A DNA stretch of 64,000 nucleotides from an uncultured bacterium (GCA_965603595.1 CBFDDP010000001.1:17751-81750); one strand, 5' to 3'; positions 33,739-46,708 are shown, numbered from the stretch's first letter. Numbers and translations are program-made. Notes: generated from the sequence alone by a model not told the origin.

Positions 33739-34134
33739 CTATCTCAACTTGAGCTCCTTGCTGCTCTCCCACAGGCCGTGAATGTTACAGTAGGATGCAG
33801 CGAGCAGTGTACCAGGCTTGTCCGTCTTCATGGAGGTAACCACACAGCTGTTCGTATAGACAGGGCCCTGATTCGCACCCTCAGTTGACTCACCATGCGC
33901 ATCAAACTCGTAGCGTCCCACCTGAAAGGGTGCCTTCGCTCCTTCCGGTTGGAAGTACAGGATAACCCACCGTATGTGGTGCTCAGTGGTGTTGGGATGG
34001 GCCACCTCCTTGCCGACGGTAACCTCAACATTGAAATATTCCCCTGCCTTCACGCTGTCGGGTGCACCTATGGCAGGCACATGTTTCTCTGACTTCCAGT
34101 CGGCACTTTGCATAACGTCCTTAAATGCAGACAT
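33739..34134 (-). CDS. superoxide reductase (1Fe-SOR, neelaredoxin type)
   Basis: 131 aa with EKHVP ... H..H ... C..H ligand pattern (SEKHVPAIG; HPNTTEHHIRW; CNIHGLW). Strong RBS GGAGAGGAGG. Confidence 0.85.
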   Translation of the reverse strand: MSAFKDVMQSADWKSEKHVPAIGAPDSVKAGEYFNVEVTVGKEVAHPNTTEHHIRWVILYFQPEGAKAPFQVGRYEFDAHGESTEGANQGPVYTNSCVVTSMKTDKPGTLLAASYCNIHGLWESSKELKLR

Positions 34135-34350
34135 ATATCGATCCTCCTCTCCTGTTTGTAATTATAATCACATTACGTCTGTGGGTTCTGAGAGTCAATA
34201 GAAAGAGAGGGATGATTGATACGGTTGACAATACATGAAGACTCATCATCATTAAACATATACACCTTGGGGTAAATTTTTTGTTTTGAACATGATTTTT
34301 CACGAAAATATGATATACTGTAGGATGATAACATATATGATTGGGTAACC

Positions 34351-35226
34351 ATGTTAAAAGTGTTTTGGAAGATTGTACTGTGTTTTCTACTCTTCCTTCT
34401 CGTCGCAACCTTCTCGTTCTCTGCAACCATATATCTCAAGGATGGGACTGTATTAAACGGGATTATCGTTGAAGCAACCGAGGAGCAAATAGTCATCGAC
34501 ACAACGGTCGGCCTCATCGAAGTGCCCAGGTACAAGATAGAGGACATACTCTATGAGGGGGAGCAACCCGAGCCCAACTCTGGAAACATCTCAAAAAATA
34601 TAATCATCCAGCCGCAGACAGATGAGGGCGAGCAGCTCTTCTCCGAGATGGAGCAGCGGTACAAAGAGATCGAGGAGAAGAAGATTCGCCTCTACTTTAT
34701 GCTCCACGAGGAAGAGTTTCTCGATAAAATGGGCATCTATGAGGTGCAGCGCCTCGCGGGTGAGATTCCCTATTCTGAACGCCTCGCCATGTACTCAGCC
34801 TATGAAAGACGGGACCAGGGCCTTGGTGTAGGTCTCAACTTCTTCGCACCGAGCCTCGGCAGCTGGATGCAGGGTGATATAACGGGTGCGCTCATTCAGG
34901 ATGGTTTACTGCTCGTGGGAGTCGGCCTGCTCTACTGGAACAACAACTTTGACTATGAGAACAGCAATTTCTATAACGAAGAGAATGGTCAGACCGATAT
35001 GATGATGTATGCGGGCATTACCGTGCTTGCAGGCAACTGGGTATTCGGTCTCATACGCCCCTTCACCTATGTGAGGAAGTGGAATAAAAAATTGGCAGCA
35101 TCGCTACGGATCTCAGTCGACACCCTTCAGCAGGGTTATACACCCGGACCACACAACCCCTACGCCGAATATAAGGCGGATAACGAAACTCAGCTCAGGG
35201 TCGACCTCCTCGAAATCGAGTATTAA
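34351..35226 (+). CDS. hypothetical secreted/membrane protein
   Basis: Signal peptide MLKVFWKIVLCFLLFLLVATFSFSA. Hydrophobic C-terminal segments. No known motif. Confidence 0.5.
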   Translation: MLKVFWKIVLCFLLFLLVATFSFSATIYLKDGTVLNGIIVEATEEQIVIDTTVGLIEVPRYKIEDILYEGEQPEPNSGNISKNIIIQPQTDEGEQLFSEMEQRYKEIEEKKIRLYFMLHEEEFLDKMGIYEVQRLAGEIPYSERLAMYSAYERRDQGLGVGLNFFAPSLGSWMQGDITGALIQDGLLLVGVGLLYWNNNFDYENSNFYNEENGQTDMMMYAGITVLAGNWVFGLIRPFTYVRKWNKKLAASLRISVDTLQQGYTPGPHNPYAEYKADNETQLRVDLLEIEY

Positions 35227-35243
35227 TCTCCACCCTCACAATT

Positions 35244-36533
35244 TCATGTCATGTCCCTGGGCTGGCCCGTGGCAGCCAGCACATGGTTCCAGAGCCGTCC
35301 AGCAGGGTCTATGCACTTGCGTTCAGATACGGCAAGGCGGATGGGAACATGCGTGAACTCCCGTTTCCAGTATCCCACAACGGTATTCGTCCTGCCCGCC
35401 ATACCTGCGTGCACCGCGTTCTGACCGAACAGCAGGCAGAATGCCGAATCGTGGGCATTGGCCGGTATGCTTCTGATGATGTAGCTGGGATCGATATATT
35501 TGAGCGTCAAATCCATATTAATCTTCTTGAAATGGGCCTTTATCTCATCTCTAAGATACACCCCAATATCGCCGTAACGTATGTTACCCGAATCATCACA
35601 CTCAGTGACCTTTTGCAACAAATCCTGCCCGGCCCCCTCGGCCACAACCACAACTGCATGGCTGCGGCTTTCAAGACGATCCTTTAAGGATTCGAGGAAG
35701 GGCTTCATCTTAAAAGGAACTTCCGGTATGAGGCAAAAGTTGACGTCCCCTGAGACCAGTGCCGCATAGGCCGCAATGAAACCTGAATCCCGCCCCATCA
35801 GTTTCACGAGACCAACACCATTGCGCGCGCCCTCGGCCTCGGTATGCGCAGCATATGTGGCCTTCTGGGCCTCCTGAATTGCGGTTTCGAAACCGAAAGA
35901 CCGGTCCACATAGGAAATGTCGTTGTCGATGGTTTTGGGAACCCCGATGACACCGATCTTCACCTTCCTCTTTTTGATCTCCTCGGAAATCGCCTGAGCC
36001 CCGCGCAGTGTCCCGTCACCGCCGATGGCAAAGAGGAGCCCGATACTCATGCGCTCCAGTGTATCGACCATCTCTGAAACATCCTGCGGTCCGCGTGAGG
36101 AACCAAGTATGGTACCGCCCTTCTTGTGAATATCACCCACCTCGTCGGGATTAAGCTCGATGGGCTCATGACCATGTGTAAGGGTGAGGCCCTCATAACC
36201 GTACCTGAACCCGAACACGTTCCTCACTTCGTAGTGGTGATAGAGGGCAAGCACTATTGCACGTATTACATCGTCGAGTCCCGGACAGATACCGCCGCAG
36301 GTGACGATCCCGCACTTGAGTTTTGATGCATCGAAGTATATCTTCTCCCGGGGACCGGCCAGCTCGAACACCGGGACTTTTTCCTTGTCCCTGATCAGCT
36401 TCTCGATTTCCGGCAGGCTCGAATGGTAGAGCACATGCTCATCGTCGCCGACATACCGTTCACCCGTCATTGGGGAAGGGATCTTGCATTCACCGAGTCT
36501 GTCGACAGAAAGGTCAGGATTACCGTTACCCAT
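35244..36533 (-). CDS. pfp: 6-phosphofructokinase, pyrophosphate-dependent type (Pfp/PFK group II-like)
   Basis: PFK motifs GGICPGLDDVIRAIV and AIGGDGTLRGAQ. 429 aa is the size typical of PPi-PFKs. Confidence 0.75.
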   Translation of the reverse strand: MGNGNPDLSVDRLGECKIPSPMTGERYVGDDEHVLYHSSLPEIEKLIRDKEKVPVFELAGPREKIYFDASKLKCGIVTCGGICPGLDDVIRAIVLALYHHYEVRNVFGFRYGYEGLTLTHGHEPIELNPDEVGDIHKKGGTILGSSRGPQDVSEMVDTLERMSIGLLFAIGGDGTLRGAQAISEEIKKRKVKIGVIGVPKTIDNDISYVDRSFGFETAIQEAQKATYAAHTEAEGARNGVGLVKLMGRDSGFIAAYAALVSGDVNFCLIPEVPFKMKPFLESLKDRLESRSHAVVVVAEGAGQDLLQKVTECDDSGNIRYGDIGVYLRDEIKAHFKKINMDLTLKYIDPSYIIRSIPANAHDSAFCLLFGQNAVHAGMAGRTNTVVGYWKREFTHVPIRLAVSERKCIDPAGRLWNHVLAATGQPRDMT

Positions 36534-36697
36534 GCATACACCTCCCCTATTCCCCGTTCATTCTTACACATAATGTAACGATAGTTGTCCTTTAATTTCA
36601 AACTATTATGAGTTGCAGCGTGAGGATGGATTGTTCACCCGGGGGTATCCTTCACCGAACCAGACCCGCCAACCTGTAGTAATAGTTCAGGTTATGT

Positions 36698-38557
36698 CTA
36701 TTCTTCCTCTTCCCAGATCATGACATCCTTCATTTGAGACATGTTAGCAGCTCGTGTTGCATCATCGCCTGCTAAATCCAGATATGCATATTCCACAGCC
36801 AAATCAGGATCTATCTTCTTTAATTTGTTATAAGTTTTTTTTGCAGATCCATAATTTTCTAGTTCGTGGTTTGCGCGAGTAACACAAAGCAATACCTTCG
36901 GATTTTTAGGCTGTATCCTGGTTGCTCGCTCATATAATTCGAGTGCCCTCTCCATTTCATCATTGAGATAGTAAATATTTCCAAGGTTCATTAATGCGGG
37001 CATATACTTACTATTCATGCTCAACGACTTGGTGAACTCCATCTCAGCCTTGTCATTCACTCCATATCGAGCATATAAAACGCCACGTTTATTGACAAGC
37101 TTTGCAGTTTCTCCACTTTTTGTTATATCATCCTCAATCTTTACCAGCTGTGAATATATTTCCCTATCGATATACTTTATTAATTCTGTCAAGTACACAC
37201 TCACCAGCGTATCACTGCTGGGAAGAGTCAAAGTTGCAATATCTCCAGGCAACCCCACAGGTTCATACAGGCTCCAGGAACTATGCATTGGATAGAATCC
37301 CTCTTTCTGTTTTAAAACGGCTTCTCTCCACTCCTGAGCCCCTGTCTGCCATGCTTTAAGAAATCCTCCACCGATTTCTGTTACTTCAACGGGTATCCAG
37401 ACCTTCTCATCCCTGAATATCAACTCATCCTGCCTTGAAAACCTCTTCCTTGCTTGTTCAGGATCCATGGCAACTGCAAAGGCCATAAAGATATGGCCAG
37501 GTATTGTAATAAATGATGTTTCAACTCCCACTGACTCAAGGAGAGCACTGTACAGAATAGAGAGATCATCACAGTCACCAGCCCTGTAGTCCAGAGTCTG
37601 CTTGGGGAACTGCAGGAAGTCGACTGCTTGTTTATTTGCCGAAAATTCTGCATACGGTGTTGTCGGGTCTATAACATAGCTCATACCGTATAACGATATC
37701 GCCTCGTGGAGAGCCATCGCCATAAGTAGATTCTTGTCCACGGCTTTGCTTCCCTTATCTTTGATCATCCCTGCGACATTTTTTGAAAACCTGAGCACAA
37801 CCGGATCCTTTGCCGTTACAAATGCCGCGGCTTTTCTGTCGTCATCCCAATTTATCGCATTTCTATCAAATATTCGTATTGTCTCACTGTATTTGCTTTC
37901 GTATACCGTCCCCTTATGGGTGTACTCGACAATTATTTCAGCAGCCACCTTGGTGCCTTCAGTAATCTCAAGAACCTTGTTGTTAAACAGGGCAGTCAAC
38001 TCTATCTCGGCCTCTTCGCCAGCTTCAAGTGTACCGGGTGTCTTGCACTCTTTTGGTATATCCATATACTGCCGCACAAATACAGTTACGTTTATATCCG
38101 TCGTTGGGATCTTTTCCCAGTTGTGAATAACAGCTATACCCAATGGATTTTCATCATAGTACTTGTAAAACACCGGAAATATATCGTAGAACTGTGCTTT
38201 TACTATCTCTAGCCCTTCACCTGTCGTAATAACCTCCTTTTCCTCGGCTGGCTTCGATTTCTGAAAATCCTCCTTCCTGGGTTTCTGAAGTTTTTCCCTC
38301 TCTGGTTCTTCAACACCTTCTTTCCCAGGCTTCACAAGTTGTTCTGTTTCCGTTTTTTGAGTTTCTTCTTGGCCAGGTTTTACAAGCTTTTCCTCTTTTC
38401 CTGGTTTTTCGAGCTCTTTATCTCCAGAAACCGGAGATTCATCTTTTCCAGGCTTTTCGAGCTTCTCTCCCCCTCCTCCAAAGAGACCATTTGTAACAAG
38501 AGCAAATGAAATTATCAAACAGAAGAAAATGGTAAAAAAATTGAATTTATATTTCAT
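36698..38557 (-). CDS. transglutaminase-like cysteine-protease-domain protein with N-terminal KPGKE tandem repeats and C-terminal TPR repeats
   Basis: Signal/anchor MKYKFNFFTIFFCLIISFALV. Repeats EKPGKDE/EKPGKEE/VKPGQEE/VKPGKEG/QKPRKED. Transglutaminase-like Cys/His (AGDCDDLSILYSALLESVG ... IPGHIFMAF). C-terminal TPR-like helices. The gene is ~40% GC versus ~52% in flanking DNA. Confidence 0.7.
   Translation of the reverse strand: MKYKFNFFTIFFCLIISFALVTNGLFGGGGEKLEKPGKDESPVSGDKELEKPGKEEKLVKPGQEETQKTETEQLVKPGKEGVEEPEREKLQKPRKEDFQKSKPAEEKEVITTGEGLEIVKAQFYDIFPVFYKYYDENPLGIAVIHNWEKIPTTDINVTVFVRQYMDIPKECKTPGTLEAGEEAEIELTALFNNKVLEITEGTKVAAEIIVEYTHKGTVYESKYSETIRIFDRNAINWDDDRKAAAFVTAKDPVVLRFSKNVAGMIKDKGSKAVDKNLLMAMALHEAISLYGMSYVIDPTTPYAEFSANKQAVDFLQFPKQTLDYRAGDCDDLSILYSALLESVGVETSFITIPGHIFMAFAVAMDPEQARKRFSRQDELIFRDEKVWIPVEVTEIGGGFLKAWQTGAQEWREAVLKQKEGFYPMHSSWSLYEPVGLPGDIATLTLPSSDTLVSVYLTELIKYIDREIYSQLVKIEDDITKSGETAKLVNKRGVLYARYGVNDKAEMEFTKSLSMNSKYMPALMNLGNIYYLNDEMERALELYERATRIQPKNPKVLLCVTRANHELENYGSAKKTYNKLKKIDPDLAVEYAYLDLAGDDATRAANMSQMKDVMIWEEEE
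38275..38480 (-). repeat. imperfect in-frame tandem DNA repeats (CCAGGNTTTNCNAGCT-type unit) encoding the KPGKE peptide repeats
   Basis: Four to five copies of the unit visible in the 5' part of the 36698..38557 gene. Confidence 0.5.
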
Positions 38558-38787
38558 GGCCGCGTACCTCCACAGTTCATTGATCTAAACAACAGTGCAA
38601 GTATAATTAAGAGTGCTTAATTTTTAACTCCTTATATTAATCTTTACCACACATCAGGAAAATTTTAAAGATTTTTATAGAAAAAAAACGTCGTTTTTGA
38701 ATTACCTGTATATATAGAATTATATTGACATTAAAATAAGAAAATTTATAATTAAAATAATTTCATGCCATTTTAAGGAGTTCGACA

Positions 38788-39501
38788 ATGAAAAAATTTA
38801 TCATCATTACTGCTTTAATTTTGGGTGTCCTTTTTATATTTTCAGCTACCTCTGTTTTTGCTCAGTACGCATATTTTGGAGTGAAAGGAGGAATAAATTT
38901 AGCAAATGTTTGGGGTGAGGATACTGATCCAGATGGTGCTCTCTTTATTGGTTGGGATGACAAAAAAATAAAAATAGGCTTTGCAGCGGGGGGTTATTCA
39001 ACAATTGTACTAACAAATTGGTTTGCATTACAGCCAGAACTGCTTTTTACTATGCAGGGCACCTCATATGAATATTCGGAGGAATTACCAGGCTACTCTT
39101 TCTGGGTTAAAGAGACTTTAAAATTGGGTTATATTCAACTTCCAGTTCTGCTCAAATTTTACATTCCGATGGAAGGCAATGTAAAGATCAACGCTTTTGC
39201 TGGACCATATGTTGCCTATAACGTATATGCGAAAGCTAGAGTGCAGGTAGAGGAAACTGGCTTTGAGGATTATGATGAAATAGAAGATATAGAGGATGAT
39301 TGGGGATGGGGAGTCCGAAAATTTGATTATGGGGCTGTTGCTGGTGCAGGTGTTGACTTTATCATAAAAGGTAGGCAGCTCACTGTTGACGCGAGGTATA
39401 CCATAGGATTTGCAAATATCTTCCAAGATTTAACGGGATGGCCCGAAGATCCTGTTTTTAGAAATGGTACAATTTCAGTAATGGTTGGGATTGGATTTTA
39501 A
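38788..39501 (+). CDS. small outer-membrane beta-barrel protein (OmpA-like N-terminal-domain / porin_2-type)
   Basis: Signal peptide MKKFIIITALILGVLFIFSATSVFAQ. Alternating aromatic beta-strands. C-terminal F (..MVGIGF). Low GC, preceded by a very AT-rich 230-bp promoter region. Confidence 0.65.
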   Translation: MKKFIIITALILGVLFIFSATSVFAQYAYFGVKGGINLANVWGEDTDPDGALFIGWDDKKIKIGFAAGGYSTIVLTNWFALQPELLFTMQGTSYEYSEELPGYSFWVKETLKLGYIQLPVLLKFYIPMEGNVKINAFAGPYVAYNVYAKARVQVEETGFEDYDEIEDIEDDWGWGVRKFDYGAVAGAGVDFIIKGRQLTVDARYTIGFANIFQDLTGWPEDPVFRNGTISVMVGIGF

Positions 39502-39722
39502 ACTTACAACAATCATGCAAAATCCAGGATCATCGGATTTATGAGTATTCTTCAAATATGACAGAAACCTCTTCGAAGAAGCTTCAAAAATCATATTTTC
39601 GATCATACACGATTTCCATACAGAACCAGTACAAACGGCCATAAAGACAGGGGCTGTCATCTCCTATCAGTCCTTTGGCGACCTGTTCTATTAAAAACAT
39701 CATCGTGGGGAGAGTAAAAACA

Positions 39723-39932
39723 ATGAAGGAGAAGAGATCTGATAAAGATCGAAGGGGTGTTAATGACCGGCGGAATGGGGAGGACGGACGTTCGGGTCTT
39801 GACAGAAGGGTAGAAAACGTTGCTGTCGAGCTCGATCTACGCTGTTCTTCCAATCGAAGATCGGGTAGCGAAAGAAGAACGAATCGGGAAAGGCGTATAC
39901 AGACGGACAGGAGGAAGGTGAAAACTGTCTAA
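39723..39932 (+). CDS. small (69 aa) highly basic protein with repeated DRR/ERR motifs (hypothetical)
   Basis: RBS GGGGAGAG 8 nt upstream of the ATG at 39723. Sequence MKEKRSDKDRRGVNDRRNGEDGRSGLDRRVEN ... SNRRSGSERRTNRERRIQTDRRKV. The ORF-track form (85 aa, from 39675) has no RBS. Confidence 0.35.
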   Translation: MKEKRSDKDRRGVNDRRNGEDGRSGLDRRVENVAVELDLRCSSNRRSGSERRTNRERRIQTDRRKVKTV

Positions 39933-40221
39933 TCCTTATTCTATGTTCATTGGATTGAACCTACCCGACTCTACCTTGAACACGAACTCATCCCCTCTGT
40001 AGCATGAGTAAACTATTGAAAGAAATAGTAAATACAGGTATGAATTGATTTTCACCGAAATGGAAACAAGGTCAAGGCAAAAATCAAAGAAGATTTTTTT
40101 CCGAGAATTGCTGTCAGAGAAGGCTGCCAGATATGTACACATCGGTACAACAGTGACACTGCATCCTATATCACAAAGTCCGGCATACCATGAGATAACA
40201 ATGTCTACTTTTCTGCACAAG

Positions 40222-41652
40222 TTAGAACTTGTATTCGAAACGTATCTCTAGAAAATCCTTATCATCGAACTGGCCGAAGTAGGTCTCGGCGTCACCGCCG
40301 TACTCCAGGTACATGACCGACATGACCATGTCATCACGAAGAGAGAACTCGATCTCAGGCCAGATGATATAATCTCCCTTTTCGATCGTATACGCCACGG
40401 ACACGACCGGCCTTATCTTATCCCGATGATAGCTGTCACGCAGCGCCAGTATCAGTATGTCATCGGTATACTTACCTTTCGAATTGTACTCCGTGTCGCC
40501 TGGGCCAATCTTATCGCTGTGCATGATATAGTTTCCCCTGAGTTGAAACTCGAAGTTGAGACTGCTTATGCCCAGGTCCCGATCAAAGCCGAAGAGAAGT
40601 ACCAGGCGATGGTTGTGCACGAGTGGGTCATCGCCGGCCCAGTCCTCCGTGAAGTAATACCCCGCCTCCAGCCAGGTGTTGAAACCCCACAGCACAGTGC
40701 CCAGATCACCGCCCAGAAAATGCACACGGTCCCAGGAGATATAGGCTTTGTTTTCCAGCATGAGCCGCTGATAATTGATGGAGGGTTCCCTGAAATAGCC
40801 GTAGTAGTAGAGCATACCCAGGTCGAGTCGACCAGGTGCCTTGCTCCATCGAGCCGCGAATTGCCCGTATTCCAAGCTATTTGTGATAGGATAAATGATG
40901 TCATCCGCTCCATTGGGCAATGTGTCTATTAATTGCTCGAGATTGTAGGGGACCCAAGGACCTTCTAGCGGAAAGGTATCGGGCGTAAACACCGGTTCAT
41001 AGACCAGCTCGAGCAAAGAACCGCCCGTGAACTTCCAATTGATCTTGAATATGGCCTCTGCTTCCTTCCGGTCCAGGTAGTCCTGGTTTACAAAATCCGT
41101 GTAGTCCATGGGAGTGAGCAGGTCTATAACATGGGTCTCATCCCCCGGTCCCCACACCACCTTCATGTACCCGATCTCCAGGTCAAAGCGTTTGTAGTAA
41201 AGCCGCGCATAGGCCTCATCAATGATATTGTCCAGGTCATTAAAAAGGATGTTCTTGGTAAAATCCAGGGCGAGAAAGAGATCGGAGTTTTTGTTCTGAT
41301 AGAGGAAGTCCAGCGTAACCCAGGGATATACACTGACTGGGCTGTCCTTGAATGAGTCTTTATTCGCATAGTAACGGGTATCGAACCTGAATCTGCCGCC
41401 TATGTTGAGCTTCTGTTCTTTATCTGACCCTGTATCGAATGAGGACAACCCCTCTCCTTCATCCTCAGCGATGATCTCGTCGATGTCGCCAAAATTGGAG
41501 AAATCATCGCCCCCCGCACCCTCATCAAACTCACCCTCACTATCCCCTGTGCCGGTTTCCCCTTCAGCGAAATCCTCCTGCGTCATTCCCGTTGACACGA
41601 AGAACAGGAGCAAGAAGAATGCAATGGCGGCCACTGTTGGTATCCTCTTCAT
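40222..41652 (-). CDS. predicted outer-membrane beta-barrel protein with N-terminal acidic low-complexity region
   Basis: Signal peptide MKRIPTVAAIAFFLLLFFVSTGMTQ. D/E/G-rich stretch (res ~26-75). Y/W/F-rich body ending ..RFEYKF. Confidence 0.6.
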   Translation of the reverse strand: MKRIPTVAAIAFFLLLFFVSTGMTQEDFAEGETGTGDSEGEFDEGAGGDDFSNFGDIDEIIAEDEGEGLSSFDTGSDKEQKLNIGGRFRFDTRYYANKDSFKDSPVSVYPWVTLDFLYQNKNSDLFLALDFTKNILFNDLDNIIDEAYARLYYKRFDLEIGYMKVVWGPGDETHVIDLLTPMDYTDFVNQDYLDRKEAEAIFKINWKFTGGSLLELVYEPVFTPDTFPLEGPWVPYNLEQLIDTLPNGADDIIYPITNSLEYGQFAARWSKAPGRLDLGMLYYYGYFREPSINYQRLMLENKAYISWDRVHFLGGDLGTVLWGFNTWLEAGYYFTEDWAGDDPLVHNHRLVLLFGFDRDLGISSLNFEFQLRGNYIMHSDKIGPGDTEYNSKGKYTDDILILALRDSYHRDKIRPVVSVAYTIEKGDYIIWPEIEFSLRDDMVMSVMYLEYGGDAETYFGQFDDKDFLEIRFEYKF

Positions 41653-41689
41653 GATAAGACCCTCGCCGAATTTTTTTAGTGCGCCCCTG

Positions 41690-42487
41690 TTACGGCCTTC
41701 CCGTTTTCAGAAACTGTGTGGTAAAAAACCCTTCATTCACAGCCTCATCATATGCAAGCTTCTTGAACTCGAGTGAAGTTCTGTGCTCAGTCTTCATATT
41801 CTTCATCTCCGAGTAGAGCGCAGTCCAGTAGCCCTGTACCTGCTTGAGGCTCTTCGACACACCCACCTTCTCGAGCTCACCCCTCTTATTATACAGCTCA
41901 ACCTTGATAGGCACCCATATATCCCTGGGGACCCAGCGCAGCAGGTATGCGTAGTCGGAATCGGAAGGATCTTTTGCCCACATCTTTATGACATAACAGT
42001 CATACCCATCGAGTTTCTCCTCCCGTAAAACCTCGTAGTGATACTTCTCCACCTTGCGTCTCTTCATGTCATCATAAGAAAAATCTGTACCCATAAAGGA
42101 CTTGCCCCCCTCCTGGGCAGCAATCCTCCTCACCTTCTTCAGTGCCGGAAGATAAATCCACTGATCGTCGTCGCGGTCACCGTACTCGACCTGCAGGAAA
42201 CGTGTACCCTTGATCGATGCCGGTGCGTGAAACACGACCACGTTCTTCTCCAGCTCGCCGTCATACTTGTACGACCACTGCTCCACGTATCGCGTGCTTA
42301 TGGTTCCGTCTTTATCGATAAGGTCCATCTTGACCAGAGAGTGCATGGTCCGCTGCGTTTCGCTGTTGTAGACCTCCCAGGCAATCTCTTCAGCAGTCAG
42401 GGCATAGAGGCTTTGAAGGCCAACGGAAGACTGCAAACAAAATAGCAGCGCTGATGTAATAAGTGTGACAAGGATTACCCGCCTCAT
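41690..42487 (-). CDS. LolA-like outer-membrane lipoprotein-sorting family protein (periplasmic partner frequently encoded with MMPL exporters)
   Basis: Signal peptide. ~265 aa. Located immediately downstream of the MMPL gene. Assignment is by architecture and context rather than a sharp motif. Confidence 0.5.
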   Translation of the reverse strand: MRRVILVTLITSALLFCLQSSVGLQSLYALTAEEIAWEVYNSETQRTMHSLVKMDLIDKDGTISTRYVEQWSYKYDGELEKNVVVFHAPASIKGTRFLQVEYGDRDDDQWIYLPALKKVRRIAAQEGGKSFMGTDFSYDDMKRRKVEKYHYEVLREEKLDGYDCYVIKMWAKDPSDSDYAYLLRWVPRDIWVPIKVELYNKRGELEKVGVSKSLKQVQGYWTALYSEMKNMKTEHRTSLEFKKLAYDEAVNEGFFTTQFLKTGRP

Positions 42488-42538
42488 ATCCTTTCCTCCA
42501 AACTCCCAAAATATTTCGCTCTAAAGTTCAAACCCCTT

Positions 42539-45184
42539 CTATTTCAATAAAAACTTTGGCTTTAGCATGTTCAGCAATACAGGAAGTACGGTCATTGCGG
42601 CAAGGGACGTGGTTATCATGGTGAGTGCAATGAGAAGCCCTGCCGTGGCAATGGGTATGAAATTCGAGAACATGAGTACCGCGAATCCCGCACCAACGGT
42701 GATCGCATTGATGATAATCGCCTTGCCCGTTGTGAAGAGTGTGTTCTTCGTGACCCTGCTCAGGTTATCCGTATTTTTCCGCTCACGATAGTAGCGCGAG
42801 AGAAAGTGAATCGAGTAGTCTATGCCGATGCCGATTGCAACAGAGGCGACCAGTGAGGTAACGATATCGAGTAGATACCCGGCAAATCCCATAACACCGA
42901 ATATGATGATGATCGCAACGGACAGCGGAATGATCCCGTATAGCCCGGCGACTGCCGATCTGAATGATACCGCGATGATGATGAATACGACCACCAGTGC
43001 GACGAATATACTCATGATCTGTGAGCGAACTATAAGATCGGTAAATGCCGCCTCGATATCCGCATGACCCGCGATCTCCACTTCATAACCCTCTGGAAAC
43101 CGCTCATCCACATACCGCATAATGTCCCTGGTTATCTCTTTGGTGAAGTGATTGCCCGTTGTCGTGAGTTGCACATGCATACGCGCCTGCGAGGGTTCGA
43201 GTGCATCATCGGTAAAATCGTCCAGGTTGCCCGAGAAGAGAAGCAGATACTGGGTTATGAGGTTCTGGAGCTCCTCTCTGCTCGAGACCGGGTATTTTTC
43301 AGGATCATAGGGGATTTCATTGTACGCCTCCCCTTCAATATTGAACTCCCGCATGAACAGGCTGATATACTCGTCTGCAGGCAGGTTCATGTCACGGGCG
43401 TCAAGGTACACATCGTTCATGAGTGCGGCAATTTCACTACGGGAAAAATTCACATCGTACTTCACGGGAGGAAAGGTGGAGCCTCCTGCCGGGATCTCAT
43501 CTTCAACCTGATCGGCAAACTCTTCCGTGAAGAAACTCTCGAAGGCTGAATCATCATCGCTTCCCACATCCTCAGAAGCCATGAACTCCTCGGTGAAGAA
43601 GCTTCCCTCCACTCCTCCGTTATCTGCATGTGCGTACTCCTCTTCCGGTTCCGTATAGTTCATGACCTTGTTCATGCGCTTGATATAGTCGGTAAACGAA
43701 ATAACCTTACCCACCTGTACGTATTCGGCCTGCAGGTACAGGCTCAAATCATCCATTGCCTTGAGTATCTCAGGGTTGGTCAGGTCACCACGCTTCTTTC
43801 CCCGTACGACGATGCTGAAATCCTTGGTACCCCCGAAATTCTCACGCAGAAAATCATCGGCATCCCGTATCTCGGTACCCCTGCGAAAGTACTCCACCAT
43901 TGAGTTGTCAATAACGATCCTGGACATGCCGTACACCGAAATCGGCAAAATAATCGCCAAACTCAGAATCACTCCCATCCCGCGTCTTGTCACAATGAAG
44001 TTGTAGAATTTCAAAATGGCAAGGAGCAGGCCCCCCGACTGTTTCCTCTGTGAATGTGCGGCAAGCCGTTCGAAACCCCTTCTCCTTGACAGCAGGAGTG
44101 CAGGGATAAAGGTCAGTGCAACGATCAGTGCAATGAGCACGCCGATGGCGGTAAATATTCCGAAATGGCGCATGGGAAGCACCGAACTCACGGAGAGTGA
44201 TCCAAACCCGGCAATGGTGGTCAGTCCTGCCAGCAATACCGGTTTCCCGACCTTGCGCACTGTGTCGAATACGATCTCCCTGTTTTCATCCGTGCCCGAA
44301 ACCCTGCGCAAATTATCATAGTAGTGACTTATGATGTGAATGCCGTAGGCACTTCCTACTGCAATGAGCAGTACGGGGATCGCCGTGGCCAGCATGGTGA
44401 GTGAGAGACCGATCAATGCCATGAGCCCCACTGTCCAGATCGTACTGATGGACACGGTAATAATGGGGAGCAGCACACCCCCGGTGTTCCTGAAGGAGAG
44501 ATAGAGAAAGATAAACACTACGATGAGTACAAAGGGGATGAGGTTACGGAGGTCGCCCCGTACACTCGTCCCCATGAGCGCAGTCATCACGGGATTCCCG
44601 GCCACATGTGCCCGCAATCCGAACTCCCCACTGTCCTTCACAATCTCCTTTATCTCATAGTAGGCCCGCTCCCAGACCTCCACGTCGAGGTCTAATTCCA
44701 GGGTTGCGATGATCTGAGCTGACTGGAAATCATCGGAGAAGAGAAGTTTCTGGTACGCGTCCCATGAGATGAGTCTTTCTTTCAGTTCCTGGATTTCATC
44801 CTCAGTACCGCCGAATCCGTCCACAATGGGTGTAACCTTCATGCCCTCTTCTGTTCCGGAGATATAGTCTGAATTGGTAAGGGAGTTTACCTCCTGCACA
44901 TATTCAAGGTCTTCAATCTCACCGGTAATCCCATCGAGGTAGGCAATCGCCTCTTTCGTGAAGATGGTTCCATGCTCAGCATGAAAGGCAATAGACACGT
45001 GGTCCTGGCTACCAAAGGTCTCCTCAACCTCATCAAAGGCCAGTCTCGACGGGTACCGCTCAGGTACGAATTTGGTGATGTCGTTATCAATCCTCGTTCG
45101 AGGAAGCTGGAGGCTGAAAAAGAAGGTGCCGGCGAGGATAACGGATATGATGATCCAGGGGTGCCGAAACAGTTTTTGGAGCAT
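42539..45184 (-). CDS. MMPL/RND-superfamily exporter (two 6-TM bundles, each preceded by a large periplasmic loop)
   Basis: 881 aa. N-terminal TM, large soluble domain, TM cluster (res ~200-370), second large soluble domain, second TM cluster (res ~700-870). This is the typical MMPL topology. Confidence 0.8.
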   Translation of the reverse strand: MLQKLFRHPWIIISVILAGTFFFSLQLPRTRIDNDITKFVPERYPSRLAFDEVEETFGSQDHVSIAFHAEHGTIFTKEAIAYLDGITGEIEDLEYVQEVNSLTNSDYISGTEEGMKVTPIVDGFGGTEDEIQELKERLISWDAYQKLLFSDDFQSAQIIATLELDLDVEVWERAYYEIKEIVKDSGEFGLRAHVAGNPVMTALMGTSVRGDLRNLIPFVLIVVFIFLYLSFRNTGGVLLPIITVSISTIWTVGLMALIGLSLTMLATAIPVLLIAVGSAYGIHIISHYYDNLRRVSGTDENREIVFDTVRKVGKPVLLAGLTTIAGFGSLSVSSVLPMRHFGIFTAIGVLIALIVALTFIPALLLSRRRGFERLAAHSQRKQSGGLLLAILKFYNFIVTRRGMGVILSLAIILPISVYGMSRIVIDNSMVEYFRRGTEIRDADDFLRENFGGTKDFSIVVRGKKRGDLTNPEILKAMDDLSLYLQAEYVQVGKVISFTDYIKRMNKVMNYTEPEEEYAHADNGGVEGSFFTEEFMASEDVGSDDDSAFESFFTEEFADQVEDEIPAGGSTFPPVKYDVNFSRSEIAALMNDVYLDARDMNLPADEYISLFMREFNIEGEAYNEIPYDPEKYPVSSREELQNLITQYLLLFSGNLDDFTDDALEPSQARMHVQLTTTGNHFTKEITRDIMRYVDERFPEGYEVEIAGHADIEAAFTDLIVRSQIMSIFVALVVVFIIIAVSFRSAVAGLYGIIPLSVAIIIIFGVMGFAGYLLDIVTSLVASVAIGIGIDYSIHFLSRYYRERKNTDNLSRVTKNTLFTTGKAIIINAITVGAGFAVLMFSNFIPIATAGLLIALTMITTSLAAMTVLPVLLNMLKPKFLLK

Positions 45185-45207
45185 ATGAGTAACTCCCCTG
45201 TGCAGGC

Positions 45208-45837
45208 CTACAGTGACCGGACCATGAGCTCGAGCATGTGCTCGAGCAGCTCCCGGGGCTCATACTGACCACGCTGATTGATGATATCGCCCAAGACCGA
45301 CAGCTGCTTCATGAAGGACGTCACGATATTCGCATACAGGATGGCCATCTTCTCGGGTTCTATGTCGTCCCGTATGGTGCCGTCCTCCTTTCCTTCCTGG
45401 AGTACCTCAATGAGCATGTCGATGATTTCATCGATGATGCGCATACACTGGGCGGCCATGTTGCTCTCTTCCACCTGCGAGGTAATTTTATAATCGATGT
45501 TACTGGCGAATTCAAAGTATTCGGCATAGTCTGTATAGTATTGTGGGATAATCCCGACAATGCGTTTGATCTTCTCAATTCCCGAACCGCCATCCCGAAT
45601 AGCCCCTTCCATCATCCCCTTCAGCATCTTGAAGGACTCGAACATGATTGCATGGGCAAGATCTTCCTTGTTTTTAAAGTAGATGTAGAGGGTACCCTTG
45701 CTCAGTTCGGCGACGCGTGCAATGTCATCCATGGTGGTGTCGTTAAAGCCCTTGGTGAAGAAGACTCCCTTTGCAGCCTCGAGAATCTCTCCGTACCGCT
45801 GCTCGCGCTCACGCTGCCGCCGCTCTTCCGTTCCCAT
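45208..45837 (-). CDS. TetR/AcrR family transcriptional regulator
   Basis: N-terminal HTH (ILEAAKGVFFTKGFNDTTMDDIARVAELSKGTLYIYFKNKEDL). Confidence 0.88.
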   Translation of the reverse strand: MGTEERRQREREQRYGEILEAAKGVFFTKGFNDTTMDDIARVAELSKGTLYIYFKNKEDLAHAIMFESFKMLKGMMEGAIRDGGSGIEKIKRIVGIIPQYYTDYAEYFEFASNIDYKITSQVEESNMAAQCMRIIDEIIDMLIEVLQEGKEDGTIRDDIEPEKMAILYANIVTSFMKQLSVLGDIINQRGQYEPRELLEHMLELMVRSL

Positions 45838-45852
45838 ATTGCTAACCCCGGG

Positions 45853-45881
45853 TTATATTATGACTGCAAGTCATAATATAA
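45853..45881. promoter_or_regulatory. perfect 13-bp inverted repeat TTATATTATGACT-gca-AGTCATAATATAA: candidate TetR operator
   Basis: Read directly ~15 bp upstream of the tetR start codon, the classic position for an autoregulatory TetR operator. Confidence 0.6.
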
Positions 45882-46045
45882 CTATAATTCATTATAAAAA
45901 TATGTCAAGCAATTATGAAAAACAGAAAAGAGGACAGCTCACTTTTCGAAAAAAGGTGACAGCTCACGTAATTCAATCATGAGAAGGGATATTACCCACC
46001 CCTATTGAAGAGGAACAAAGGGGGATTGCCGATATGACCATTGGT

Positions 46046-46708
46046 TTATGGTATGGATGTTCGATCCTGCTGCGTACTCTGTTCGGCCCGCTTGGCAGCG
46101 AGCATGTCCTTCACCTTCATGAGGCGGGTCAAATTTGCCCGTTCCATCTCTGCGAGCTTCATGGTGATATACTTGATGGTGTCGATTATGTTGGGGACGA
46201 TTATATACTCGAGCGCGTTGACCCGCCTGCGGGTCTTCTCGATCTCTTCGGCAAGGAGAATGGAAGCCTTCTCGAGCTCCGCGAGCTTGAGAAGGGTCTG
46301 CAGCATCTCACCGTACTTTCGAACGCTCCGGTCCACGAGCACCGAGCTCCGGGCATCGCCGTAATCGAAGGGGTCACCGATGATCTCCACCTCGAATTCA
46401 GGGACCTTGAGGTTCATGATCTGCTTGGTCCTGGACTTCACATCCGTGTGCGCACCTGGCATGGAGAAGAGGCTTTCTATACTGGCACCGCCCACAACAC
46501 CCTCGGCAAGGGAGAAGCTCTGATACACGGCCTGAATATCCCTGTCAGCCTGTATACGGAGTTCCTTTGTGTCCTCAATAATTTCCAGGAAGTTCCGTAC
46601 GAGCTCGTCCTGCTTGTCCTTGAGAAGCTTGTGGCCCTTCTGGGCAAGCACGAGCCGCTTCTTCAACCGCTGCAGCTCCTGCCTCGTGGGGTTGATAGCA
46701 AGAATCAT
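46046..46708 (-). CDS. atpD: V/A-type ATP synthase subunit D. Start MILAINPTRQ at 46708 with RBS GAGAGGG; the ORF-track 5' extension to 46894 is probably spurious.
   Basis: Subunit D N-terminus and coiled-coil. Last gene of the operon. Confidence 0.8.
   Translation of the reverse strand: MILAINPTRQELQRLKKRLVLAQKGHKLLKDKQDELVRNFLEIIEDTKELRIQADRDIQAVYQSFSLAEGVVGGASIESLFSMPGAHTDVKSRTKQIMNLKVPEFEVEIIGDPFDYGDARSSVLVDRSVRKYGEMLQTLLKLAELEKASILLAEEIEKTRRRVNALEYIIVPNIIDTIKYITMKLAEMERANLTRLMKVKDMLAAKRAEQSTQQDRTSIP

Follow-up and report, generated by a model that had tools for sequence, protein, structure and literature searches.

Why should two neighbouring bacterial genes differ so sharply in base composition from the genes around them, and does the difference mark a recent arrival? 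This question is raised by positions 36698-39660 of a 64,000-nt stretch of DNA from an uncultured bacterium (GCA_965603595.1 CBFDDP010000001.1:17751-81750), the whole of which is called the window below. At this locus, the gene of a 619-amino-acid (aa) secreted protein (36698-38557, minus strand) and that of a small 237-aa outer-membrane (OM) beta-barrel protein (OMP; 38788-39501, plus strand) are transcribed divergently from a 230-bp spacer (38558-38787). An earlier, sequence-only reading took this segment for an island, acquired horizontally or shaped by selection for A/T-rich repeats, in which the larger gene would encode a contingency-type surface protein. In our judgement, the locus is probably a long-standing two-gene envelope locus that recombines and that joins a hypervariable OMP to a conserved enzyme, and not a fresh insertion. 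The host appears to be an uncultured Spirochaetota lineage, judging by its homologues and gene neighbours: the best matches are Spirochaetota metagenome-assembled genomes (MAGs), and among the neighbouring genes are those of a P13-like porin, a TP_0789/LolA-like protein and a V-type ATPase.

Base composition of the locus

The interval 36698-39660 has a GC content of 39.8% versus 51.1% for the entire window and is the minimum among all 3-kb windows (mean 0.511, standard deviation 0.032), so that the sharp drop noticed earlier is borne out, and sliding-window calculation places the interval well away from, and below, the window mean. By part, the GC content is 0.422 in the 619-aa gene, 0.265 in the spacer and 0.385 in the 237-aa gene, in agreement with the earlier description of a divergent pair with a very AT-rich region between its members. 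Of the 38 long open reading frames (ORFs), 36 have a GC content at third codon positions (GC3) of 0.55-0.77, but the 619-aa gene stands at 0.41 and the OMP gene at 0.29. The first and second codon positions (GC1 and GC2) of both genes are close to normal; the drop is one of third, synonymous positions. Since the anomaly lies at synonymous sites, neither the amino-acid composition nor the Lys-rich repeats of the 619-aa protein explain it. The low GC content spans both genes and the repeats are not its source, which disposes of selection for A/T-rich repeats as the cause. In the sliding profile, the GC content falls from ~36500, just past the start of a phosphofructokinase (PFK) gene, and the low stretch ends at ~40045-40300, i.e., it extends to the right of the interval first reported. 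The locus as a whole is taken here as a low-GC stretch from ~36534 to ~40045.

Allelic variation of the outer-membrane protein

The OMP scores 88.5 bits against PF13568 (OMP_b-brl_2; cut-off 27), possesses a signal peptide that ends in SVFA before QYAYF, and terminates in GIGF with an aromatic residue, all of which are in keeping with membership of this family. Against the TDE1717 family (NF049866), the closest family with a name, it scores 70.2 bits, below the cut-off of 135, and some of its homologues are labelled 'opacity protein-like surface antigen' in the sources. A database search with the OMP gives identities that leap from 99% to 64%. At least six alleles are found (the window and contigs L112, L088, L110, L114 and L115), with 62-81% aa identity and with GC3 values of 0.25-0.33. 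When aligned, these alleles have in common the signal peptide, eight strand-like blocks, three short connectors and the GIGF end, and their differences, including indels, sit in four long blocks: residues 38-59 (38899-38964), where indels occur, 91-109 (39058-39114), 146-176 (39223-39315) and 212-223 (39421-39456), all on the plus strand and predicted to form loops L1, L2, L3 and L4, respectively. Identity between alleles amounts to 28-67% in the loops and 74-90% in the strand blocks, as would be expected if the four blocks were extracellular loops L1-L4 of an 8-stranded barrel.

For the closest allele pair (L112/L088), the ratio of nonsynonymous to synonymous divergence (dN/dS) is 4.7 in the loops and 0.34 in the barrel. 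Nonsynonymous change is in excess in the loops relative to the barrel (Fisher p = 2e-4). A search of the 64 kb for silent cassettes that could donate loop sequences found only chance 13-14-mers. Based on this pattern of conservation, the OMP would be the hypervariable surface component of the locus. The variable surface protein anticipated by the sequence-only reading is thus present, but it is the small OMP and not the 619-aa protein. The diversity is probably driven by diversifying selection; its most likely driver would be diversifying or frequency-dependent selection on an exposed target, e.g., a receptor for phages or bacteriocins or a point of attack for grazers. We regard this part of the proposed mechanism, OMP variation, as very likely correct.

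Recombination at the locus

Two ENA contigs, L004 and L005, match window 26698-48559 at 99.6% identity and keep the gene order. A comparison of L004 with the window gives 76 differences over 21.9 kb, and 57 of them lie in the 3.4 kb of 36600-40000 (binomial p ~1e-30). Identities to the window were also obtained segment by segment, including for three further contigs from one single metagenome (L110, L111 and L112). L112 is 100% identical to the window both at the 5′ end of the 619-aa gene and in the promoter region and 99.7-100% identical in the right flank, with an OMP gene of only 70-78% nucleotide identity. For L110, the corresponding values are 99.4% (619-aa 5′ end), 92.6% (promoter), 75-82% (OMP) and 100% (right flank, 82 bp), and for L004, L005 and L111 they are 99.7-100%, ~91%, 99-100% and 94-100%.

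The divergent AT-rich promoter region (38558-38787) exists in two haplotypes ~9% apart among these conspecific strains, one in the window and L112 and the other in L004, L005, L111, L006 and L110, on contigs that are otherwise 99.6-100% identical. A full sigma-70 consensus, TTGACA-16-TATAAT, lies at 38725-38752 on the plus strand (12 of 12 matches), 36 nt upstream of the OMP start codon, and its −35 and −10 hexamers are identical in both haplotypes. Length changes are also seen near the A-tract at ~38683-38690, together with a rearranged TATAGA/TATTATATT segment.

Divergent OMP genes (70-82% in L112 and L110) between flanks that are 99-100% identical, together with promoter and OMP haplotypes that are reshuffled relative to each other, indicate that alleles are exchanged by recombination within the species. 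Whole OMP alleles would be swapped between genomes via homologous recombination, possibly with the conserved signal-peptide coding region at the 5′ end and the flank at the 3′ end as anchors, and such swapping would give rise to several deeply divergent OMP alleles within one species and even within one metagenome.

Synonymous divergence (dS) follows the same division. Between the window and L088, dS is 0.26 for PFK, 0.073 for the 619-aa gene and 0.53 for the OMP gene (OMP dN 0.25), and between the window and L115 it is 0.39 for AtpD, 0.30 for AtpB and 0.16 for the 619-aa gene. The 619-aa gene is consistently below the backbone (L088, L115), and the OMP gene is far above it (L088). This pattern fits repeated recombination, in which divergent OMP alleles would have been imported and the 619-aa gene recently shared across lineages. 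The low GC3 and the dS pattern could both reflect a gene pool peculiar to this locus, which would recombine across lineages and keep a composition independent of the chromosome, as is classic for O-antigen clusters.

Could the low GC content instead be held by local selection or mutation with no transfer at all, through tuning of translation or secretion or through nucleoid-protein binding, the OMP diversity being an old balanced polymorphism? The anomaly is present in all six OMP alleles and in several lineages, the non-variable 619-aa gene is affected too, and in the more distant loci L001 and L003 the OMP gene lies 2-5 points under its flanks, as such an explanation would predict. However, base composition is ordinary in the 619-aa orthologues of L001 and L003, and the anomaly is therefore no inherent trait of the family; the reshuffling of promoter and OMP haplotypes could not have come about without recombination; and no mechanism of this kind is known to operate in spirochaetes. 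We consider local forces without transfer rather unlikely, and this explanation overlaps with the recombining envelope locus rather than excluding it.

Conserved position of the gene pair

The order OMP-619aa-PFK is common to L004, L005, L006 (96.8% nucleotide identity) and L088 (90.5%), and the OMP end adjoins the V-ATPase operon in L114 and in L115/L116. The low-GC segment downstream of the OMP gene (39502-40045, GC 0.425) is part of this conserved locus and abuts the V-ATPase D gene in L115/L116. Window 39687-40045 matches L115 2553-2911 at 90.5%, and in L115 this counterpart runs straight into window 46050 onward. Thus, relative to L115/L116, the window has a ~6-kb insertion at 40046-46049 with a GC content of 0.498, which comprises an operon of TetR, MMPL (RND-like), TP_0789/LolA-like and 476-aa protein genes; as far as gene content can tell, this region is a swap site for envelope-export operons. 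The low GC3 accompanies the pair. In L088, GC3 is 0.32 for the OMP gene, 0.41 for the 619-aa gene and 0.59 for PFK; in L115, it is 0.27, 0.39 and 0.67-0.74 (V-ATPase); and in L114, where the 619-aa gene is off the contig, it is 0.27 for the OMP gene and 0.64-0.74 for the flanks. The lineages with the pair beside PFK or the V-ATPase operon differ from the window by a backbone dS of 0.08-0.39, and the GC3 of the pair is equally low wherever flanking genes can be seen (L088, L114 and L115/L116).

These observations bear on the proposal that the 3-kb pair was recently inserted from a low-GC donor between PFK and the efflux operon. The strong GC and GC3 anomaly is what such an island would display, a distant 72%-identical orthologue is found on a 37%-GC contig (L007), orthologues of 60-67% identity occur in other contexts with no GC anomaly, and the surrounding region is plastic. 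However, the pair is not absent from close relatives at the same site: L004, L005, L006, L088, L114 and L115/L116 carry it, and it stands at the same low GC3 beside PFK or V-ATPase genes at the backbone divergences given above. The tRNA gene and flanking direct repeats sought as marks of an island are missing as well, with no tRNA in the 64 kb, no integrase among the genes next to the locus and no bracketing direct repeats, and relative to L115, it is the normal-GC segment 40046-46049 that has been inserted. A scan of a genome collection with the neighbouring 476-aa protein, in search of empty-site relatives, found no relatives. Recent horizontal acquisition is improbable, and the low-GC pair seems, from the gene orders compared, to be the conserved core of a plastic region rather than a recent arrival. 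An ancient foreign origin of the pair is possible. In the L001 and L003 orthologues (60-67% identity), the 619-aa gene is of ordinary composition and only the OMP gene falls slightly below its flanks, suggesting that the compositional shift is specific to the sub-clade of the window.

The 619-aa protein

The earlier description of the 619-aa protein as a signal or anchor, five imperfect repeats, a Cys-His core and C-terminal tetratricopeptide repeats (TPRs) holds, with the transglutaminase assignment below threshold by hidden Markov model (HMM). An AF2 model built on 46 homologues (pLDDT 74.8) begins with a hydrophobic helix (H2-22), which may be a signal peptide or an anchor. A lipoprotein reading of this N-terminus (at Cys13) was rejected, since orthologues do not have the Cys and a local signal-peptidase I pattern, xFA before Q, is present. 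A K/E/P/G-rich linker follows (residues 26-105; 38243-38482), with residues 23-100 disordered (pLDDT <50), and leads to an Ig-like beta-sandwich (residues 116-229; 37871-38212), a transglutaminase-like alpha/beta core (residues 237-430; 37268-37849) and a long helix with a TPR array (residues 448-607; 36737-37216), all on the minus strand. Within this helical-repeat region, residues 521-552 are above the Pfam threshold for TPR.

Cys329, in a GDCDD motif (37573-37571), His355 (37495-37493) and Glu391 (37387-37385) are unchanged in 46 of 46 homologues and follow the Cys, His, Asp/Glu order of transglutaminases. In the model, a helix starts from the Cys, a beta-hairpin carries the His and a strand ends at the Glu, which fits the transglutaminase fold. 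PF01841 (Transglut_core) was matched by 24 of 24 core sequences tested and DUF553 by 23 of 24, all below threshold (best E 2.6e-5), and these are the sole families matched by more than 4 of the 24. No Pfam or NCBIfam family spans the 330-aa core as one unit, and a profile search of the core against PDB sequences gave nothing significant. Structure matches of the full model were all TPR and those of the core model all Ig-like sandwich; the stretch just before Cys329 is of low confidence. The label 'transglutaminase-like thiol enzyme' is well supported, if not proven, by the motif and the profile matches.

The protein would therefore be, as far as its predicted architecture goes, a secreted and most likely periplasmic thiol enzyme with a transglutaminase/papain-like fold and Cys329/His355/Glu391 as a putative triad, the Ig-like domain acting as a spacer and the TPRs as a peptide-binding module. 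It may hang below the OM on its KPGK linker, attached formerly to a barrel of its own and now possibly to the neighbouring OMP. With the OMP as tether or partner, it may act as a thiol protease or transacylase and cleave or cross-link an envelope protein or peptide that the TPRs would select. A periplasmic location is reasonably likely; a specific catalytic role is proposed only tentatively.

Enzyme family and loss of the fused barrel

A protein search returned 1713 matches, hundreds of which have a core (residues ~100-619) 50-60% identical to that of the window protein, and up to 67% in Spirochaetota MAGs. A GTDB scan with one genome per species yielded at least 560 family loci, nearly all in Spirochaetota MAGs and often with several paralogues per genome. 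Most family members are ~700 aa long. Their N-terminal ~180 aa form a Gly/Tyr-rich domain that matches PF13505 (OM beta-barrel), and a Lys/Pro linker with LPxKPxPL at its end comes next; in other members, the N-terminal position is taken by beta-helix, LamG, WD40 or extra TPR modules. In the OmpA topology, a small 8-stranded barrel is followed by a hinge and then by globular domains in the periplasm. The long forms have this same barrel-hinge-domain order, which suggests by analogy that their C-terminal domains are periplasmic. Thus, the idea of a contingency-type surface protein does not agree with a core that is 50-67% identical across hundreds of Spirochaetota genomes and with kin that are fused behind a barrel.

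The barrel is missing from a single sub-clade, which consists of the window, L001/L008, L009, L003/L010 and L013. Within the loci examined, a divergent PF13568 OMP neighbour is confined to this barrel-less clade and is always present there. L115, with a core 94.4% identical in nucleotides, has a signal peptide and a ~110-aa N-terminal extension (L115 1-1296; L116 3-227); in the long-form barrel profile, this extension aligns with the C-terminal third (positions 114-182, E 3e-10), and the shared FGGGGEKLEKPG comes after it. This barrel remnant suggests that the short form arose via decay of the fused barrel. From genomic context, the OMP may have replaced the lost barrel as tether or partner. 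A simple gene fission as the origin of the separate OMP is not supported, as hhalign of fused barrels against separate OMPs gave a probability of 1.6%.

In ~40 of 80 long-form loci, the stop of the enzyme gene overlaps the start of a gene for a large secreted protein or lipoprotein. The overlapping partners vary and include Ig-like repeats, FG-GAP/NHL-like beta-propellers, beta-helices and giant 1700-aa proteins; examples among loci L014-L087 are L018 7509-9662, L081 7497-8738, L058 10052-11875, L016 7569-9311 and L087 7451-12748. Several genomes have 3-4 enzyme and partner cassettes. In the 67%-identical loci (L001 10671-14027 and the equivalents in L009 and L013), a gene for a 1118-aa protein with WD40 and TPR modules is convergent to the enzyme gene, and L001 has a phage-type integrase 6 kb upstream.

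Repeats of the linker

Five KP[GR][KQ] motifs are found at residues 35, 51, 60, 76 and 92 of the 619-aa protein, each within a longer (E)KLxKP[GR][KQ] sequence. The underlying DNA repeats are weak: Tandem Repeats Finder (TRF) reports only 27 bp × 2.0 at 77%, and a repeat search gives three 26-nt copies at 77-88%. In L088, exactly 16 aa (48 nt, in-frame) are missing between two KLVKPG copies, which leaves 4 motifs instead of 5; the absent 48-nt unit lies between imperfect 14-nt direct repeats, CTTGTAAAACCTGG (38386-38373) and CTTGTGAAGCCTGG (38338-38325). The window, L004, L005, L006 and L115 have five copies in the same arrangement, i.e., the copy number is unchanged in 4 of the 5 relatives with a readable repeat region. 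Orthologues at 60-67% identity retain the motif in 3-6 copies, showing that copy number shifts on an evolutionary time scale. The expectation of variable repeat number is therefore borne out in one relative and fails in the four others, and the repeats are imperfect.

Slippage at these KPGKEE repeats might in principle vary an exposed, adhesin-like 619-aa protein. The five motif copies, the clean in-frame deletion between imperfect 14-nt repeats in L088, the range of 3-6 motifs among orthologues and a linker dN/dS of 0.73 (versus L006) can be read in this way. However, the DNA repeats lack the identity of a simple-sequence contingency tract and are irregularly spaced, and the single 48-nt indel was found in a lineage 90% identical to the window. 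Moreover, the motif survives in orthologues of 60% protein identity, as would be expected of a linear motif or spacer that has a function; the remainder of the protein is under purifying selection (dN/dS 0.17-0.42); and by analogy, the place of the core behind a small barrel in most family members would put it in the periplasm. Slippage-driven contingency is thus very improbable, and the repeats fit better with a periplasm-spanning spacer or a conserved linear motif.

Neighbouring features

A candidate 69-aa Arg-rich ORF with DRR/ERR repeats (MKEKRSDKDRRGVNDRRNGEDGRSGLDRR...SERRTNRERRIQTDRRKVKTV) occupies 39723-39932 on the plus strand, with GGAG ~11 nt upstream; it was missed by the gene caller. 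It is free of indels and stops in six contigs (L004, L005, L111, L112 and L115/L116) and is open although the nucleotide sequences diverge by up to 9.5% and many amino acids differ; in L115, the gene caller chose an overlapping frame. The ORF has no Pfam/NCBIfam or Rfam match, and Rfam at a permissive threshold matched nothing across 36000-41000. A second, shorter GC dip (~0.40) occurs at 34000-34600, in a divergent intergenic region that separates a desulfoferrodoxin-like gene (33739-34134, minus strand) from the P13-like porin gene (34351-35226, plus strand). At the site of the efflux operon, L114 has a different, RND-type efflux operon (OEP/ACR_tran/MFP) and an 80%-identical remnant of window 40200-40368. 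In the window, a perfect 14-nt inverted repeat (GTTATATTATGACT n3 AGTCATAATATAAC; 45852-45882), operator-like, lies just upstream of the TetR-family gene.

Weight of the evidence

Several points weigh against a recombining envelope locus with a hypervariable surface OMP and a tethered transglutaminase-like enzyme. For the OMP, the loop dN/dS above 1 comes from one allele pair, in which nonsynonymous versus synonymous changes within the loops give a Fisher p of 0.075, and the other allele pairs are saturated for dN/dS; surface exposure and the eight strands are deduced from the conservation pattern and Pfam. For the enzyme, the core scores 16.9 bits against PF01841 versus a cut-off of 23, the catalytic fold of transglutaminases did not emerge independently from structure searches, and no family member has an assigned substrate or phenotype. 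The hhalign comparison detects no similarity between the fused barrels and the separate OMP. For the 619-aa gene, other mutational dynamics of AT-rich codons, rather than exchange, could account for the low dS. Finally, every sequence is a metagenome contig, and several are short.

The last point leads to the weakest alternative, chimeric contigs that join related species at conserved segments: although L110-L112 are contigs of 1.1-1.9 kb from one metagenome and assemblers do break and join where conserved segments flank divergent ones, an artefact is scarcely credible, because at least 9 independent contigs, drawn from at least 6 samples, agree in gene order and have intact ORFs, divergence is restricted to four blocks within one ORF with in-frame indels, and longer contigs (L088, 4.1 kb; L114, 35.5 kb; L115, 4.5 kb) also have divergent alleles within syntenic backbones.

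A long-standing, recombining locus has consequences in three directions. It represents strain-level surface variation in an uncultured environmental spirochaete, where one small OMP occurs as divergent alleles on a clonal background; this OMP is a likely phage or predator target and a useful marker for strain tracking in metagenomes. The large Spirochaetota family with a Cys-His-Glu core (at least 560 loci in species representatives), linked to OM barrels and large envelope proteins, is a target for envelope-biogenesis experiments. For annotation, the locus is a caution that a sharp GC3 drop alone is no sign of recent insertion.

Comparison with known systems

Both the OMP and the enzyme belong to known kinds, and the enzyme family attached to the locus is widespread and uncharacterised. 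The core of the 619-aa protein resembles PF01841 and PF04473 (DUF553) enzymes in having a Cys at a helix N-terminus, a His on a beta-hairpin and an acidic residue on the next strand. Unlike the Cys-His-Asp triad of PF01841, its third residue is Glu, an Ig-like sandwich precedes the core and TPRs follow it, and the matches are sub-threshold. Another partial likeness is to NF058533, 'anti-phage protein ProA', a 1903-position model to whose positions 17-290 residues 144-411 align (E 1.9e-12). The sandwich and the transglutaminase-like module are shared with ProA; however, the score is 45.5 bits versus a cut-off of 1500, and the remainder of ProA is absent. A PADLOC scan for defence systems gave no match, and the literature searched contained no publication describing ProA and nothing relevant on transglutaminase-like/TPR proteins in spirochaetes.

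TPR proteins tethered under the OM include NlpI, BamD, PilF/PilW and the spirochaetal collar protein FlcA. NlpI, PilW and FlcA give weak NCBIfam matches to the TPR region of the 619-aa protein. With OmpA, the long-form members share a signal peptide, a small barrel (here PF13505), a Lys/Pro linker and globular domains. Unlike OmpA, their periplasmic cargo is a thiol-enzyme fold and not the peptidoglycan-binding OmpA_C, and the window protein has lost its barrel. No description of such an OmpA-like, tethered transglutaminase-like architecture was found in the literature searched.

A functional analogy may be drawn with LapG/BTLCP, periplasmic transglutaminase-like proteases that process a co-encoded adhesin, as the long-form enzyme gene overlaps the gene of a large secreted protein or lipoprotein. 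In contrast to LapG, no PF06035 match, no LapD-like regulator and no type I secretion genes were seen, and the analogy is functional speculation. Extended further, the barrel/Ig-like/transglutaminase-like/TPR proteins might form a new spirochaetal system in which each OM-tethered thiol enzyme serves one co-encoded envelope protein, a proposal to which we give a low probability. If true, the partner would be the large variable lipoprotein in long-form loci and the hypervariable OMP here, the enzyme would process, anchor or release it, and a sortase-, LapG- or Slam-like logic would underlie the building of a variable spirochaete surface.

The OMP itself has closer counterparts. Neisseria Opa and the OmpA/OmpX alleles of E. 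coli are small 8-stranded barrels with hypervariable surface loops. Extracellular-loop variability has been described for Treponema pallidum OMPs (PMC12369335), and OMPeome models are available (PMC8407342). Like Opa, OmpA/OmpX and the T. pallidum proteins, the window OMP has a signal peptide, a C-terminal aromatic residue and a predicted mature barrel of ~210 aa, with four long variable loops set between conserved strands and short turns, and like Opa and OmpA/OmpX, its alleles appear to be exchanged through recombination. Unlike Opa-type systems, it has neither intragenomic silent cassettes nor phase-variable repeats in the 64 kb, and the variation lies between strains; unlike T. pallidum, the host is an environmental, uncultured spirochaete.

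At the level of the locus, the O-antigen rfb clusters of Enterobacteria offer a parallel, being low-GC, fixed in position and present as many divergent alleles that are exchanged via conserved flanks. The OMP locus is likewise fixed in position, has a GC content far below that of the genome and would exchange divergent alleles. In contrast to rfb, it encodes a protein antigen together with a conserved enzyme, and it measures 3.5 kb versus 10-20 kb.

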